Source: a virus. From it: 64,000 bases of DNA. The stretch is taken from the UHGV virus genome UHGV-0134778; one strand, given 5' to 3'. This document shows, piece after piece, positions 899 through 59,651 of the stretch. Both the position numbers and the translations under genes were made by a program. Within the stretch, counting starts at the first letter, position 1, and the number at the start of each line of letters is the position of its first letter. The notes below the pieces were generated by a model. It made no database searches. It worked only from the letters and a program-made list of their open reading frames with translations, and was not told where the DNA came from.

Positions 899-2275
899 TT
901 ATTCAGTCATTGCAACAGCATTGGTGGATTTAGAACCAACTTTGTCCAGAAGGACGTTGATCCGGATACGAACGAAGTGCAGGGCGTTGTTATACACCAG
1001 TTCTACTTTCACACCTTCCAGAACACGAGCAGCCAACTGATTGGTTGGGATCTCTGCACGTTTAGGAACTGTGATGATCGGGTCGTAGAACACATTGTTG
1101 TCTTCGTCAAAACCTGTCAGGATCGCGCCATTCTTAATGCCAGTATTGATCGGGTTGTTCATCAGAACAGATTTGATAACCGGAAGATCATCATCAGACA
1201 TCTTCATGCTTAAACCCATGTTGGAGCGGCGATGCATGTACCCAAACATGGATTCTTCAGATCTGAACTTGATCCAGTGTGCAAAACGAATAGCGTCTGC
1301 ATACTGACCTGAAGCACACTTACCTTCCCAGAAAGCGCCAACACCGTTAATCATTCTGTAGAAGTTAACGTGGTTTTCCCAAATCGCCATACGCTGAGTT
1401 AAAGTCAGAGATGGTGCAATCACACCCGGCATCTGTTTTAAGTGCAAGCTGTCACCGTAGGACGGATCGTTGGATGCCATAGCACCTATGATACCACCCT
1501 CCGGGAAGTCCTTATCTGCACGAGGATCGTACATGCCAACACTGTCATATTGTGCAGCTTTCAGTTTGGTAGCGATGTTACTATCTTTGCCAGTCACATC
1601 TTCTGCAGTAGAGTAGACATGGAGCTTGTAGTTAGCCTGAGCCCACTTAGCACATGCTTCAATGTCGGTGTGGTCTTCATGGCACAGGAAGTACCAATTG
1701 TCACGCTCAGCATTGATCTTATCAACTACTGTAGAAGGTTTTTCAGTATTGGCGATATTTTTGATTGTATAGTTACCAGTATGATAACCAACAGTACAGT
1801 CACCAGTGATGGTGATAACACCTTCAGAAGCCTCCACAGTGATATCTTCCAAGTTATCATCTGCTTCGATTTTAGTCTTCATTGATTCTGCAATCTGAGT
1901 TGCAGCTGTTCCACCAGAGATAGGAACTATCAAAGAGGTATTGTAGCCACCTTTTGCAATAGTCATTACGACATCGGTATCGGCTGCGGCAGCAATACCC
2001 TTAAAGTCTACAGTGGTTTTTTCTTTGGCCTGTCTGCCGATCATAACATATTGTGGAGGGAATACACCACCAAAAGCTTTTGCTGCAAACTCATACGCTG
2101 CAGAGCCTTGTGCGAAACCATCTTCCACCATCTGATCCAGCTCCGCATATACGCGAGCTCGCTCAGTAAAGTTGTTGTGGATAGCGATGAACAGGGGAGT
2201 TTCGAAACCTACAGTGTCAATAGGTTGGGTTCCGAGGTTAACTGTAACATCTACCACTTTATCTAAATATGGCAT
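899..2275 (-). CDS. putative tail sheath protein
   Basis: 458-aa ORF at the distal end of the head-to-tail gene order, followed by a ~150-aa ORF; assignment by synteny and size only; alternative is another major structural protein. Confidence 0.45.
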   Translation of the reverse strand: MPYLDKVVDVTVNLGTQPIDTVGFETPLFIAIHNNFTERARVYAELDQMVEDGFAQGSAAYEFAAKAFGGVFPPQYVMIGRQAKEKTTVDFKGIAAAADTDVVMTIAKGGYNTSLIVPISGGTAATQIAESMKTKIEADDNLEDITVEASEGVITITGDCTVGYHTGNYTIKNIANTEKPSTVVDKINAERDNWYFLCHEDHTDIEACAKWAQANYKLHVYSTAEDVTGKDSNIATKLKAAQYDSVGMYDPRADKDFPEGGIIGAMASNDPSYGDSLHLKQMPGVIAPSLTLTQRMAIWENHVNFYRMINGVGAFWEGKCASGQYADAIRFAHWIKFRSEESMFGYMHRRSNMGLSMKMSDDDLPVIKSVLMNNPINTGIKNGAILTGFDEDNNVFYDPIITVPKRAEIPTNQLAARVLEGVKVELVYNNALHFVRIRINVLLDKVGSKSTNAVAMTE

Positions 2276-2347
2276 TTGTTTCCTCTTAATATCTGTGCAC
2301 GGATATCAAACACGCAGTGTAATCATTACACTACACAATTATAACGA

Positions 2348-2899
2348 TTACTGACCACTGTCTGTAACCGCTTTACCAGAATTGGGTGAAGGGAAATGTG
2401 TGGTTATTTCAGCCTTAATTCCCTGAAGATCCTCAAAAGCCCCAATGTCTGTCTCAACAAACCTTACGTTAAATGTCAGCATTACGGTAGCTCTATTTTC
2501 ATACGTCTGCTTATTCAACGGCACCCTTTGAGGTGAAATTGTTGAATTGTTAGAGTAGGCAAAGCACGATCCCAGAGGGAAATACTTGTCATAAAACATT
2601 GGAAGGTTTATTGCTTGCAATACTCTGCTAAGTGCAGCATATGCCCTGCCGCGATAAGCTGTTAACAGATAAGTAACAGTATAACTGTGGGTGACGTAAG
2701 CATTACCCTCCGCATCTTGAAACTCATTATCTTCCCAAGTGGTGGGATTGATCGCCAGGGTTTGCAAAAGTACAAACTCACCTTCCGGCTTCGGTATGGT
2801 AGAGCTTTCTGCCAGAACTACAGTTCTTCCTGTGGCAACCATGACAAGCTTAGCGATGGTTGTTTCAAGATCAGAAAAAACTTTTTCGAAAGCTTCCAT
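2348..2899 (-). CDS. hypothetical virion protein (neck or tail completion)
   Basis: 183-aa ORF in the co-directional late array between capsid and sheath genes. Confidence 0.45.
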   Translation of the reverse strand: MEAFEKVFSDLETTIAKLVMVATGRTVVLAESSTIPKPEGEFVLLQTLAINPTTWEDNEFQDAEGNAYVTHSYTVTYLLTAYRGRAYAALSRVLQAINLPMFYDKYFPLGSCFAYSNNSTISPQRVPLNKQTYENRATVMLTFNVRFVETDIGAFEDLQGIKAEITTHFPSPNSGKAVTDSGQ

Positions 2900-3324
2900 C
2901 AGTTTTCTCCTTCAGGCTCTTCTACCACAAAAAATCTATATCTTCCACCACCAGATGTGACATATGCATCGCATTTTAAAACGGTAAACCATTTCAAGTC
3001 ACCACGGATGTCAGGTAGTTGAATTTGATCAGCCATTGCATATGTTCCTTCATCTGGACTATACAACTTGGTTGATGAGTAAACTGTAAAAGCCTCGTAC
3101 TGTCTGTCACCCTCAGGATTTATCTGGGAGGAGTAATCTTTAGCTGCTCTTCCTGTCAACGGCTGCACAACACACTCTAAGACATCAAACTCTTCATACT
3201 CAAGTTCTAACCCCTCGTTAGCAAAAGGACTGCCAACTGTTTTGTTATACACTCTGTGGCGACCTTTGAATGTTTTACGAGGTATTAGCCTGTTCTTTCC
3301 TATCAGCTTATAACCTGCTGCCAC
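2899..3324 (-). CDS. hypothetical virion protein (head-tail joining region)
   Basis: 141-aa ORF, start/stop overlap with neighbour, late array. Confidence 0.45.
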   Translation of the reverse strand: MAAGYKLIGKNRLIPRKTFKGRHRVYNKTVGSPFANEGLELEYEEFDVLECVVQPLTGRAAKDYSSQINPEGDRQYEAFTVYSSTKLYSPDEGTYAMADQIQLPDIRGDLKWFTVLKCDAYVTSGGGRYRFFVVEEPEGEN

Positions 3325-13935: not shown

Positions 13936-14034
13936 GGTGCTAGGTGATGGAATCGAACCACCTATGTATTCAACGACTACCTCGTCTATTTTCAGGATTA
14001 AAAATCCTCGCCCTTGCCAAAGGGCTTACCTAGC
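13936..14034 (-). tRNA. atypical tRNA-like element (99 nt): possible non-canonical tRNA or tRNA pseudogene
   Basis: Perfect 7-bp acceptor stem (GCTAGGT/ACCTAGC), canonical D arm and T arm (GGTGG-TTCGATT-CCATC), but A8-A9 instead of U8, an AGGATT-TTT-AATCCT hairpin in place of a standard anticodon arm, and a ~31-nt insert containing a second hairpin; no CCA encoded. Confidence 0.35.
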
Positions 14035-55420: not shown

Positions 55421-55582
55421 ATCTGGTGCACGATTCCATACCTTAAGCAGTTAATCTCATTACAGAGCGTTTAAAGGCGGCTTACAAGCAACTCTCTATT
55501 TCGAGCGTAGCGAGAACGCACGTCCGTTTTGACCCAAATCACCATACGCTCGGATTTTAACCAAACCCTCGCGGCGTTTCTG

Positions 55583-55611
55583 TTGACACATTACCGCTCC
55601 AGTGATAATAT
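55583..55611 (+). promoter_or_regulatory. sigma70-like promoter
   Basis: TTGACA-N17-TAATAT; lies inside the N-terminal part of ORF-track ORF 55529-55942, arguing that part is not coding. Confidence 0.5.
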
Positions 55612-55643
55612 CCACACATCATTTGGAGAATATGGGATACACA

Positions 55644-55733
55644 ATGAAAACATTGTCAGAGGTTTTGGTGGTGATCCTGATGATCATTACGTCCATAGTG
55701 GCTGTTGCCGGAATACTCACGGGTGGAACATGA
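55644..55733 (+). CDS. small hydrophobic peptide (29 aa), not in the ORF track
   Basis: MKTLSEVLVVILMIITSIVAVAGILTGGT; GGAG RBS downstream of the promoter; stop overlaps the next ATG. Confidence 0.35.
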   Translation: MKTLSEVLVVILMIITSIVAVAGILTGGT

Positions 55734-55942
55734 TAAACACACATGCATCTGAAGAGACATCCAAAGGAGTGACTATATGTCCCTTGGCTGAGCCAGTGAA
55801 AGAGGAAAACTTAGATTCTGAAGATTCTCCATCTTCGCTCCAGGTAGATCCTGAGGCTGATGACCTAACGTGGGAAGACATCGTAGACATCTGGTTCTCC
55901 ATTATGCCTGAGCACGAAGAGTTCAGAGGTGGCAGACTATGA
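55730..55942 (+). CDS. hypothetical acidic protein
   Basis: C-terminal 70 aa of ORF-track ORF 55529-55942, starting at an internal ATG coupled to the upstream peptide; alternative is the full 137-aa ORF. Confidence 0.35.
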   Translation: MINTHASEETSKGVTICPLAEPVKEENLDSEDSPSSLQVDPEADDLTWEDIVDIWFSIMPEHEEFRGGRL

Positions 55943-56063
55943 AGCACCGAGCCCACACAGGTTCCTCATGCTAAAGCATGGCCTGAAGAGGCAAACGTGC
56001 ATAATTCCTGTGCATTGGAACGTATAAAACCCTGTTCACACTCTCATTTCTAGAGGAGATTTC

Positions 56064-56279
56064 ATGAAGATAGAAATATTTGGTGGAGCTGACAACACTT
56101 GTGGCCTGATTTACCTCGAATTCGATGAATCGTACCTGCCAGAAGTGTTAAACATGGATTCTGTTGCTGAGGCTTTGGGAGTAAGTCCTAAAGATCTCTA
56201 CTCTGGTGCTGAGATTGATGGTTGGGAGGAGACCATGAACATCGATTTCAGTGAAGTAGGTGATGAACCGCTGGACTGA
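56064..56279 (+). CDS. hypothetical acidic protein (MKIEIF N-terminus)
   Basis: 71-aa ORF with GGAG RBS; last plus-strand gene before the non-coding region. Confidence 0.45.
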   Translation: MKIEIFGGADNTCGLIYLEFDESYLPEVLNMDSVAEALGVSPKDLYSGAEIDGWEETMNIDFSEVGDEPLD

Positions 56280-57804
56280 CACACAATTAGTTGCCCGGCT
56301 AAAGTGCTGGAAGCACCCATAACATCTTCCAACTAAATTTCCTACCAACACAGTTACTTACCCACCACACATGACTGTTTGCTTGTTTAGTGAGCAGTCA
56401 TCCCTTGACATTCTTGCCTATCTTGATAAAATTAAGTTCTTCTCTTTTCTTTTACCGAGTAATTCGGGTTTTCTGTTCTCTTCGGTTTGAAGGGGTATGG
56501 AGATACACCTGAGTGAACAGGGTGAACAACCGAACCTTTAGCTATGGCATTAGCATGGCGAAGCGGACGGGTGACGAAAGAGGGGCCGGAGGACACCAGT
56601 CACTGCCATATAGTATATGGGTGATAACCTGAAGAGTCTGAATAAGTGTTTAAGTACCAGTCAGAGGAAAAGGTGAATGGTAGCCGAAGGGGGAGGGGGG
56701 TTTCTTATATCTTTAATTTGTATACTTTATATACACTTGTAAACCAATTCAATTAGGATCTGTTTACCACACAAAGTGGATGGAGACAAATATCACCTAT
56801 TAAACTTGAATTATTTATAGAAAATACCACAACACTACTTAAGTCTTTGATTTTACACACAAATCCTACAGATACTCACCCTCCATATTTAACATACTTG
56901 TAACATATCCCATACTCTACCTGTCTGATCAATTTACCCAACTACATCCCCATATTTTTCCTGTCTGTACTACCCCTGCCCCGCCGGGAGTCCCGTCATA
57001 TCTGGCTTCCCAGCAAATATCACACCCACAAATATCATTGCCTGAAGAGGGTTTCATCCCATAATACACACCTTGCCTGAAGAGCGATTCATACACCAAC
57101 TAAATTTTTTAATTGACCCCTCCCCGCCGCCGGAGAGGTTGGCTTTTCCCACACAGGCCTGAAGAGTCAGCCAGAAATATCTGAACAGGCCCAGTTATAC
57201 CACGATTTTGACATGACCGACAGGAGTGCTACCCTGTCAGGAGCCGGTAGCGACTGGAGTGCTGCCAGGCGGACGAAATGGGAATACTTCTCATTCTTAT
57301 AACAATTCTCAAATATCGAGGCAGTGAGGCAAATTAATAGGTGAGGCCGTTCACACAGTGGCACAACATTTGCAACCTATCTTGTGGGGTGAATGAGAAT
57401 ACCTATCATTGTGAGAATAGTTATCATTACGGGCAATTTAACATAATACCCATTATGCGCACCACTGGCGATACATACAGGGATTGATAACATGGGTTAC
57501 TGTTTACGCACATAACAATTATATTTCTTACTATTTGTGCGGGATATAGTTAGCAACCAATAGATTAGATATTGACCTGCGGACTTCTGACCGTCCAGAC
57601 GTCTAAACGCCCACACAACAAGGGTTATACATACATTCCTGAATGTAAACAGGGCCGCAAAAATGCTACCATACCAGTTTGTAAATTTTTCATGCAGCAC
57701 TTGACAAAGAGGAGAAAAACTTGTCTGACACTTTTGCCACTTTTGACACTTTTACCTTTGACACAATATGACACAATAACGGCTGTTACTATTCCATATC
57801 TCAC

Positions 57805-57858
57805 TGTTTACGCATAGACTGTTTACGCCTGAATAGTTTACGCCCAAACTGTTTACAC
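57805..57858. repeat. four direct repeats of TGTTTACGC-like 9-mers with 15-bp period
   Basis: Copies at 57805, 57820, 57835 and 57850 (TGTTTACGC, TGTTTACGC, AGTTTACGC, TGTTTACAC). Confidence 0.8.
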
Positions 57859-57869
57859 AGAGATGATGA

Positions 57870-58163
57870 GCCATGCCATTCGTTTGCATGAAAACAATTA
57901 ACAAGATAACAATTAACAAGTTAATAATCTTTCGCTGGCTATGCCAGGTGACTAGGTCACCCCTTCGGGCGTTTATATGACATAATATAAAAGCAGGGCA
58001 ACTATTAGAAGATCTATAGTTGCCTTGCTTGTTATGTCATGATTAACTAAATACAAGGCAACTATGATCTGAGTAATAGATTGCAGAAAAACTATCACGG
58101 GGGTGATGGTTACTGCTTTTATATTATGTCGCGACTCCGTCGCGCCATGCCATTCGTTTGCAT
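57870..58163. repeat. composite repeat locus: 20-bp direct repeats flanking inverted repeats and a 28-bp palindrome
   Basis: GCCATGCCATTCGTTTGCAT at 57870-57889 and 58144-58163; inverted 18-mer TGACATAATATAAAAGCAG at ~57978-57996 vs ~58113-58130; palindrome GGCAACTAT-N10-ATAGTTGCC at ~57997-58024. Confidence 0.75.
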
Positions 58164-58823
58164 AGTTGCCTTATTGTTACAGGTAAAATAATTACATTAT
58201 TAATTATTTCTTATCTTTCTCTTAGTCATCTAATGATTCCAGTCAGTATAGTAATGTACAGTAAACATTAGACGACTAAAGATTTCTCTGTTTATGATAA
58301 CTCATCGTGATAATTTCGGGCTGTTTACGAAAAATGTTGACACCTGAGCTGATTTATGTTATGCAGTCTACACGAATAATTATTTTATGCAGGTATTGAC
58401 TATTCCGTTATTCTGTGGTTGGAATAAATACTTTGCAGGCTATAGAATGGCGTGCGTACGTGAATTCTGAGATCTGGCGGCTATAGTTATACTCGATTTT
58501 TCGCGTAGAACACGCTTTAGATGCTGTGTAAGTGTATGACTTATAAAGATTTTTAGTTGTTGACAAGATATTGGAGATGTGCATCAGGTTAAAATTTGTG
58601 CAATAGCGGCATTACGTGCACTTTTGGGAGAGAAAACGGGTAAAAATGGACTTGCTACCACACAATGAAAAATTATGCAATAGTTATTTTCCATGTATAT
58701 TTGTACAGTATGTGGGATTGATGGCTAGTCAATTATTCCACTTGCCAGGTAGGGCCGTTTATGGTAGGAGAAGAGCAGACAAAAAGAAAGGGGCCTAAGC
58801 CCCTTGATAATTCAGTTAAAAAA

Positions 58824-59243
58824 TTATAATGATTCGTATATTTCAAAAATCCGATTTGCCAGGTCGTTACGGTAGCTGAATTTTTCCTCACGTTTGATCA
58901 TAAGATCTTTATAGCCGTACTCTTTAAGCACTTCATTAACTTTATGGCGGCATACTTTCATATTATCCTGCGCGTCACCAATAAATCTGTTGCTATGGTG
59001 CATGGCTTTAATTTCTTCTTCCAGGACCAGGGCAACTATGCGGACCGGATCAAGCTGATAGGCGGTAACATCCATGCGGCATTGTAAACGGCTTTTTACG
59101 TCTGCCACCGGATATACTGCAACCTCTTCCCCGTCAACATTGACAATAATTAGTTTACCATCGATTTCGAATCCTTTCGCCGCCGGACCGTGACAAAAAG
59201 CGTTATCAAAGCTATATGCCGGATTATTAGATTTAATGTTCAT
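58824..59243 (-). CDS. hypothetical protein
   Basis: 139-aa ORF with AGAGGT RBS and promoter-like element upstream. Confidence 0.5.
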   Translation of the reverse strand: MNIKSNNPAYSFDNAFCHGPAAKGFEIDGKLIIVNVDGEEVAVYPVADVKSRLQCRMDVTAYQLDPVRIVALVLEEEIKAMHHSNRFIGDAQDNMKVCRHKVNEVLKEYGYKDLMIKREEKFSYRNDLANRIFEIYESL

Positions 59244-59292
59244 GGTGTTTTTACCTCTTAGTTAATTTTCTTACAACTTCCCTTCAAAAAAG

Positions 59293-59322
59293 AATATAGC
59301 AAAACTGCCGATCCCTGTCAAC
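59293..59322 (-). promoter_or_regulatory. sigma70-like promoter with palindrome over the -35 element
   Basis: On minus strand TTGACA-N18-TATATT; -35 embedded in inverted repeat ATCCCTG-gttgac-AGGGAT. Confidence 0.5.
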
Positions 59323-59387
59323 CAGGGATAGCGTAATTTTTATGTGATCAAGGGGCTTTATTGCCCCTGACCATGTAACTTGTTGTA

Positions 59388-59651
59388 TTATTTGTTGCTC
59401 ATCCAGTTTTCCCAAGCTGCCTGATAATCTGCCTCACTACGGCGGATCTCTTCTTGCTCTTCAAGGCGGATCTCTTCTTCCAGGTACCCCAAGATGTCAG
59501 CCTTTTTAGTCTGGCGTAGCATCCAGTCATCTTTTTTGCGAGTGAAGATCTTATAAGCTTTCTCGCAAACCTCTTTTTTGCTACCTTTCTGGACTTCAAG
59601 AACACGATAAGCCATATATTGAACTAATTTGAGCTGATCAAGACGTTTCAT
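59388..59651 (-). CDS. hypothetical protein
   Basis: 87-aa ORF with GAGGTAA RBS. Confidence 0.5.
   Translation of the reverse strand: MKRLDQLKLVQYMAYRVLEVQKGSKKEVCEKAYKIFTRKKDDWMLRQTKKADILGYLEEEIRLEEQEEIRRSEADYQAAWENWMSNK

Follow-up and report, generated by a model that had tools for sequence, protein, structure and literature searches.

Introduction

Arrays of a short motif, repeated at a nearly constant distance beside a terminal repeat, are known from bacteriophage T7, where they are called SRL and SRR; they were reportedly described by Dunn and Studier in 1983 and have long been suspected of a part in concatemer processing or packaging. In the T7 record the terminal repeat spans 1-160, and 12 CCTAAAG-like heptamers stand at 175-332, mostly 13 bp apart (175-239, 267-332), with further copies inside the terminal repeat at 17, 41, 60 and 94 and a looser heptamer set to the left of the right-hand repeat. 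Here we analysed a 64,000-nucleotide stretch of the UHGV virus genome UHGV-0134778 (the window), in which four head-to-tail copies of a short unit lie next to a direct terminal repeat (DTR) placed by homology. The array is best classed as a DTR-flanking short-repeat array, a kind of element which is known but poorly understood.

Other described systems also bear on such an array. The R1-R3 sites of lambda cosB, the P1 pac hexamers and the SPP1 pacL boxes are repeated protein sites which position terminase at the cut site, and they have been found experimentally to be bound by small terminase subunits or to need host factors. The iterons of replication origins are typically 17-22 bp long, helically phased and near an AT-rich unwinding element, DnaA boxes and an initiator gene, and arrayed DnaA sites are spaced 11 bp apart. 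In the plasmid Xer sites cer and psi, ArgR/PepA or ArcA/PepA bind to about 180 bp of accessory DNA directly beside the XerC arm. Finally, the terminal repeat of phage T5, about 10 kb long and gene-bearing, includes a repeat-rich non-coding injection-stop region.

The four-unit array in the window

Judged by its sequence, the window is a Vequintavirus, an rV5-like E. coli myovirus, and the region of the array matches about 120 public Vequintavirus genomes at 80-99% identity. The original prediction, made from the letters of the window, had described four 9-bp repeats in one orientation at 15-bp spacing, resembling iterons or an array of binding sites. We found the 9-mers on the + strand as described, namely TGTTTACGC (57805-57813), TGTTTACGC (57820-57828), AGTTTACGC (57835-57843) and TGTTTACAC (57850-57858), with start-to-start distances of 15, 15 and 15 bp, but the true unit is slightly larger: each of the four units (starts at 57803, 57818, 57833 and 57848, all on the + strand) consists of an 11-bp core, A[CT]TGTT[TC]AC[AG][CT], and a variable 4-bp spacer. 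Tandem Repeats Finder (TRF) reported a period of 15 over 57803-57856, with 3.6 copies and a score of 64. On both strands of the 64 kb, GTTTACRC occurs six times, five of them inside 57502-57858, and a scan of the 64 kb for any 6-mer present four times at a fixed period of 8-30 bp returned one locus only (GTTTAC, 57806, period 15); no such locus arose in 200 first-order Markov simulations (0/200).

A weight matrix trained on relatives only, with the window left out and a threshold of 9 bits, gave the full score of 17.5-17.6 bits at 57803, 57818, 57848 and a solitary copy at 57499, and 14.0 bits at 57833; the best score elsewhere in the window was 13.1 bits, and the strong copies were all on the + strand. 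Sequence reading, TRF and simulations thus bore out the four repeats, their 15-bp spacing and their single orientation, and the array is confirmed as real, conserved and far above chance. It had also been placed about 10 bp before a locus of direct and inverted repeats, which agrees with the start of the 20-bp direct repeat GCCATGCCATTCGTTTGCAT at 57870. Two lone copies of the motif accompany the array (Table 1): the copy at 57499 has a counterpart in the same position in all relatives examined, and the weaker copy at 58320 is kept as TGTTTACGA in most of them.

The array among Vequintavirus relatives

Relatives were compared as 22 sequences, 17 of them distinct, and 85 units were counted from the 17. 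The motif was present in every Vequintavirus examined (22/22 sequences), in 1 to about 10 copies: one in JohannBauhin and CM1, two in JeffSchatz, three in S127, FV3 and isim, four in the window, five in ECP2303 and the EdH4 group, and about ten in rV5. By type, the arrays of the relatives fall into three groups. It forms part of a hypervariable segment, 114-219 bp long in the relatives, which is bounded on the left by the DTR end ...CTTGTC and on the right by the block GATGATAAGCCATGCCATTCGTTTGCAT, and which is built of two arrays, TGACAY first and the TGTTTAC type second; the TGACAY array occurs in all relatives with 4-9 copies, which by visual estimate recur every 8-15 bp or so. From one relative to another the segment changes in length by amounts not divisible by 3, and it is therefore not coding.

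Within the 85 units the core was conserved outside the search pattern, with A at -1 in 93%, R at +8 in 92% and Y at +9 in 94%, whereas spacer positions 10-13 carried 0.09-0.18 bits only. Units were spaced 15 bp (27 times), 16 bp (19 times) or 30-32 bp (12 times, where a unit has decayed) apart. A kept core, free spacers, a fixed phase and a uniform orientation argue for selection for protein binding and not for recent slippage alone. In the isim record an automatic "repeat_region" already covers the array, with no function given. A scan of IMG/VR for further vequintaviruses returned two contigs only.

Position of the array at the presumed physical genome end

Terminal redundancies of 458 bp were reported in EdH4 and HdK5 by Korf 2019 (PMC6563267). 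In the EdH4 record the first 459 nt equal the last 459 nt, starting with GGCGGACGGAATGGG... and ending with ...CTTGACAAAGAGGAGAAAAACTTGTC; these ends map to 57268 and 57725, and the window therefore holds one DTR copy. The boundaries placed in this way lie between A and GGCGGACG on the left and directly after CTTGACAAAGAGGAGAAAAACTTGTC on the right. Three more records (ECP2303, EcoIv14a_Aya and Pr121LW) end at the equivalent of 57725, two (bov10K2 and bov22_2) start at 57268, and ECP2303 opens with TGACACTTTTGCCACTTTTGACAC..., identical to the window from 57726 on. In ECP2309, YN3 and bov25_3 a dif-like site internal to the DTR, treated below, lies 159-198 nt from the record start, at a distance as in EdH4. 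A 594-bp duplication in phage I29 (locus positions 1-1080) showed no correspondence to the DTR and was set aside.

Outside the genus, a 514-bp DTR of 'T7 type' was determined for Klebsiella phage KPP-1 from coverage and PhageTerm (PMC9862379), and the record of Erwinia phage Hena1 carries annotated 519-bp DTRs. Both DTR boundary sequences are conserved in these two phages, the homologous boundaries lying between A and GRCGGAC on the left and 17-19 nt after a conserved TTGACA on the right; several IMG/VR contigs of 93-149 kb also have the right-end block, at +265 to +292 relative to the dif-like site. In the window the TGACAY array begins at the first base past the DTR and the TGTTTAC array 78 bp past it, so that by homology the array would fall within the unique sequence that comes first at the left virion DNA end.

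The whole arrangement lies in a gap of about 2.1 kb free of open reading frames (ORFs), 56280-58408, a region which is also ORF-free in curated records, between convergent operons whose + strand genes end to the left of it and whose - strand genes end to the right. In the rV5 genome paper (Kropinski 2013, PMC3606486) this gap appears as a grey "non-coding" box separating genes 163 and 164, and terminators were expected there. A hairpin at 57991-58030, followed by a T-rich run on the - strand, is likely to be the intrinsic terminator of the leftward operon, and the arrays would then lie between this terminator and the DTR; in the Murica record a - strand terminator is annotated at a roughly equivalent position. 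The order of the segment is DTR, TGACAY array, TGTTTAC-type array, conserved block and leftward-operon terminator (Table 1). No Rfam match at E<=1 and no tRNA were found in 55500-59500, and with both scans empty in the gap a reading of the array as structured RNA or tRNA was rejected.

Table 1. Features of the genome-end locus, in window coordinates
Feature	Position	Strand	Description
DTR, 458 bp	57268..57725		single copy in a circularly opened assembly; boundaries placed by homology
dif-like site	57436..57463	-	- strand GGTGCGCATAA TGGGTA TTATGTTAAAT; + strand ATTTAACATAA-TACCCA-TTATGCGCACC
Solitary copy ACTGTTTACGC	57499..57509	+	full score, inside the DTR, in array orientation
TGACAY array	57726..57778	+	TGACAC, TGCCAC, TGACAC, TGACAC, TGACAC; spacings 9, 9, 15, 10 bp
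Linker ACGGCTGTTACTATTCCATATCTC	57779..57802	+	holds the decayed unit GCTGTTAC; common to one subgroup of relatives
Core array	57803..57858	+	four head-to-tail units at an exact 15-bp period, in order ACTGTTTACGC / ACTGTTTACGC / ATAGTTTACGC / ACTGTTTACAC
Conserved block AGAGATGATGAGCCATGCCATTCGTTTGCAT	57859..57889	+	closes the hypervariable two-array segment; holds direct-repeat copy 1
Second 15-bp-period repeat AACAATTAACAAGAT	57893..57928	+	2.4 copies
Hairpin AAGCAGGGCAACTAT / ATAGTTGCCTTGCTT	57991..58030	-	T-rich run follows on the - strand
Weaker lone copy GCTGTTTACGA	58320..58330	+	array orientation, below the 9-bit threshold

The array outside the genus

The post-DTR flanks of the Mydovirus KPP-1 and the Henunavirus Hena1 hold no array but one lone TTGACAGTTTACR each, 88-169 bp after the DTR end, and other related contigs are without even a single TTGACAGTTTACR. 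Conservation of the array across the subfamily was rejected on the strength of KPP-1 and Hena1; the array is, among the sequences compared, an elaboration at the level of Vequintavirus, possibly, and this is tentative, of an older single site.

In the corresponding gap of Septuagintavirus A73 (reverse complement of the locus, about 2759-2800 and 2840-3000), CCAACTGT occurs three times at a 15-16-bp period; the termini of this phage are unknown and the array was not used here. An CTTGTTACTATCC element beside it resembles window positions 57783-57795, and the gap also contains two copies of a direct repeat of about 104 bp, plus other arrays.

Proposed protein sites for genome-end processing

We tentatively propose that the array is a genus-specific, DTR-flanking binding array which serves genome-end maturation or packaging, where both the binding of a protein and the role in maturation or packaging are inferred from the layout of the sequence. 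The array would be part of a control region at the physical left end of the Vequintavirus genome, and a sequence-specific, probably phage-encoded protein would bind its head-to-tail sites. During maturation, replicated concatemers would carry one DTR per junction, and cooperative binding to the same-orientation sites, along with the TGACAY array, would mark the unique-sequence side of the DTR; the bound protein might then help to position or orient the terminase or maturation nuclease, which would cut between CTTGTC and TGACA and so define the genome ends.

Like T7 with its SRL and SRR, the window pairs a short exact DTR with a short motif repeated in a single orientation at a fixed period below 20 bp; in both phages the array starts less than 100 bp outside the repeat (+15 in T7, +1 for TGACAY and +78 for TGTTTAC), and motif copies also lie inside the repeat, as the full-score copy at 57499 does here. 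The two differ in that the T7 motif is 7 bp with a period of 13 bp and ours an 11-bp core with a period of 15-16 bp, that T7 is a podovirus with its own RNA polymerase and the window a myovirus using the host enzyme, and that Vequintavirus has two different arrays in series on one DTR flank, with a highly variable copy number. Since T7 shows the same layout beside its own terminal repeat, the repeats are more likely to be protein sites for genome-end processing than a replication origin. Of the two possibilities in the original prediction, the binding-site array is supported, given the kept core and spacing and the uniform orientation, and the iterons are not. As in the terminase recognition repeats of lambda, P1 and SPP1, the array adjoins the presumed cut site, here 78 bp from the DTR right boundary, but those systems make cos or headful ends and not short exact DTRs. 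The injection-stop region of T5, another large virulent coliphage, resembles the locus in being non-coding, close to the genome end and rich in direct and inverted repeats, although T5 has a gene-bearing repeat of about 10 kb and the window a DTR of 458 bp.

Several results weigh against this proposal. To our knowledge the function of the T7 arrays has never been established, and a literature search for functional data on T7 pacB or SRL returned nothing relevant. No SRR-like counterpart was found, as the left DTR flank (56280-57267) holds no match of at least 9 bits, and with a 15-16-bp period neighbouring sites do not face the same side of the helix. No binding protein for the array was identified; comparison by eye with the consensus sites of the host factors LexA, PhoB, OmpR, ArcA and IHF gave no convincing match, and a reading as such sites was rejected. 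The single copy in CM1 and in JohannBauhin, an isolated phage of the BASEL collection, means that a multi-copy array is not essential, and the DTR boundaries which KPP-1 and Hena1 share without the array mean that it is not a general need of this packaging type. Moreover, Shigella phage CM1 (locus positions 2060-3110) contains a perfect 523-bp tandem duplication which runs from exactly the DTR left boundary to a point beyond the TGACAY array, so that the DTR right boundary may lie near the equivalent of 57773 in some phages; the duplication probably arose when re-orientation of the record brought the two DTR copies together, in which case the DTR of CM1 would be longer. Whichever right boundary holds, 30-80 bp separate the array from the DTR. 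Finally, PhageTerm made a 'headful' call for a Vequintavirus derived from a cocktail (PMC13211470).

Typing of E. coli O157, biocontrol and therapy collections all make wide use of rV5-like phages, and the 2-kb "non-coding" box of rV5, unexplained since 2013, gains a concrete and testable role through the DTR and the abutting arrays. The locus also offers a second independent system in which to ask what DTR-flanking arrays of the T7 type do. In practice, the DTR position is useful for the orientation and annotation of genomes, as most of the about 120 public records are opened at arbitrary points, and engineered deletions here may affect packaging.

The array as a possible tolerated minisatellite

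An alternative is that the array is a tolerated minisatellite, produced by slippage or unequal recombination near a recombinogenic end, in which at most one ancestral site matters. The copy number of 1 to about 10 among genomes about 90% identical is what such a process would leave; gain and loss of units is visible (four in the window, three in S127, five in ECP2303), and other genera have a single TTGACAGTTTACR only. However, duplication followed by drift, or gene conversion, should act on core and spacer equally, and the core has been kept with a random spacer; in addition, units stay 15-16 bp apart or at a multiple of that distance, and all Vequintavirus genomes retain one or more units in this segment as well as the one inside the DTR. 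We consider the minisatellite rather unlikely.

A dif-like site in the DTR and possible accessory Xer sites

E. coli dif has the sequence GGTGCGCATAA-TGTATA-TTATGTTAAAT (PMC3025954). The dif-like site in the DTR (Table 1) matches both 11-bp arms at 22/22 positions and the central region at 4/6, where about 1.6e-8 chance matches to dif would be expected in the window. The site was found in every Vequintavirus examined and is the best-conserved stretch between the DTRs of Vequintavirus and KPP-1; conserved arms with different central regions occur in KPP-1, A73, Hena1, PVP-SE1, 4MG, CR8, PBES 02, KNP2 and others, and in Hena1 the site lies inside the annotated DTR, in both copies. A location in the DTR means two directly repeated copies per virion DNA, and XerCD recombination between them could, on this layout, cyclise the genome. 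A literature search found no paper linking XerC or dif with these phages, and we know of no virulent tailed phages which use XerCD/dif. The presence of a dif-like site across the DTRs of the subfamily may matter more than the array, and suggests that large virulent phages might exploit host XerCD.

Given this site, the array units might instead be accessory or architectural Xer sites, whose bound protein would control cyclisation or multimer resolution by XerCD. As in cer and psi, a core site is at hand, here with perfect arms, and 36 bp separate its XerC arm from the copy at 57499, which is on the side where the accessory sequences of cer and psi lie; this copy is the only one in the zone of about 180 bp beside that arm. 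Unlike accessory DNA of the cer and psi type, however, the array is 340 bp from the core site and outside the DTR, which would leave the right-end copy of the site without an array, and it is absent in genera which keep the core site, such as those of KPP-1 and Hena1. We regard an accessory role as quite unlikely.

A wider version, to which we give about as little credence, joins the arrays, the DTR boundaries and the dif-like site into a single module of the genome end. In it, the dif-like sites of the two DTR copies would be recombined by host XerCD, to cyclise the incoming genome or to resolve multimers, and a phage protein on the TGACAY and TGTTTAC arrays would give directionality to the Xer reaction or to the later terminase cut. 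Such a module would function like the Cre-lox cyclisation of P1, with the difference that the recombinase would be hijacked from the host.

Polarity of FtsK-orienting polar sequences (KOPS) toward the dif-like site was also considered and rejected, as the 8 KOPS-like GGGNAGGG sites in the window (4.2 expected) had no consistent orientation; three of the eight lie in the left non-coding flank of the DTR. Further, an ORF at 59388-59651 (- strand, 87 aa) is labelled 'DNA translocase FtsK' in several public records, and its identity as an FtsK-gamma-like activator was rejected because it had no match to Pfam FtsK or FtsK_gamma and only sub-threshold matches to unrelated families. In an unrelated 155-kb contig, IMG/VR UViG_3300026097_000008, a 1192-bp locus contains two dif-like sites directly followed by four perfect DnaA boxes, TTATCCACA, three of the four at an 11-bp period, which suggests that the end or dif-proximal regions of other large phages may recruit host DnaA.

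Origin iterons and operator sites as unlikely readings

As origin iterons, the repeats would be bound by an initiator which opens a nearby AT-rich region. They resemble the iterons of theta-type plasmid and lambdoid origins in being several same-orientation repeats with conserved cores, an AT-rich stretch (58150-58300, 27-28% GC) lies about 300 bp away beyond the inverted repeats, and the DnaA boxes beside a dif-like site in the 155-kb contig indicate that the ends of large phages can recruit replication proteins. Nevertheless, the core of 11 bp and the period of 15-16 bp, which is not helically phased, differ from those of iterons. The window has 10 matches to the DnaA box TTWTNCACA where 9.0 would be expected, none of them within 900 bp of the array; the units themselves are 1-3 mismatches from this box (by eye), their best-conserved 5' A, Y, T and G fall outside it, and their period does not fit that of arrayed DnaA sites, so that a reading of the units as DnaA boxes was rejected. 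None of the five flanking ORFs scanned (0/5) exceeded the Pfam cut-off, which is weak negative evidence, and the copy number falls to one in the viable phages JohannBauhin and CM1. Moreover, the locus lies at a convergence of transcription and at the maximum of the cumulative GC skew, which is terminus-like and not origin-like, and the skew analysis of rV5 gave no origin signal (PMC3606486). Phasing, DnaA boxes, flanking ORFs and copy number thus give no specific support to the iterons of the original prediction, and an origin is very unlikely.

Equally improbable are operator or other end-related sites acting in read-through repression, end protection or the control of ejection as proposed for T5, since the array, although binding-site-like and placed between the leftward terminator hairpin and the DNA end, has no sigma-70-like site overlapping it (a conserved TTGACA at 57701 is without a usable -10, by eye) and no gene downstream in either direction before the end.

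Other features of the locus

The 20-bp direct repeat GCCATGCCATTCGTTTGCAT occurs twice in 57870-58163, the copies being 274 bp apart, and the pair encloses nested inverted repeats, GACATAATATAAAAGCAG/CTGCTTTTATATTATGTC as well as four copies of CAAGGCAACTAT in alternating orientation. Phage FV3 has one copy of the direct repeat, precisely without the cassette, and in other phages the copies are spaced 213-294 bp apart; the difference may have come about by deletion between the direct repeats, or by insertion of an element that duplicated its target.

The left non-coding flank of the DTR (56690-57165) contains three copies of GCCTGAAGAG, two of AAATATCA and runs of G, for example GGGGGAGGGGGG, and some of these repeat motifs recur in KPP-1 (locus positions 1914-2008) and A73 (1940-2350 of the locus in reverse complement). 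Farther left, a near-consensus extended -10 sigma-70 promoter, TTGACA-16-TG-TAAAAT (11/12), lies at 56405-56432 on the + strand, about 850 bp from the DTR and with no ORF downstream (to about 56712). The 275-nt RNA downstream of it had a fold z-score of -1.21 and no Rfam match, and a non-coding RNA from this strong promoter was rejected, as the sequence folds no better than shuffles.

Elsewhere in the window, one ARAGORN prediction within the tRNA cluster (13936-14034, - strand) is a 99-nt 'tRNA-???' whose anticodon has four bases (atcc). Among the public matches, about 18 UNVERIFIED records (MG0656xx, 'Campylobacter phage ...', labelled C. jejuni) are 87-97% identical to the region, and their Campylobacter host labels are probably mis-attributed.

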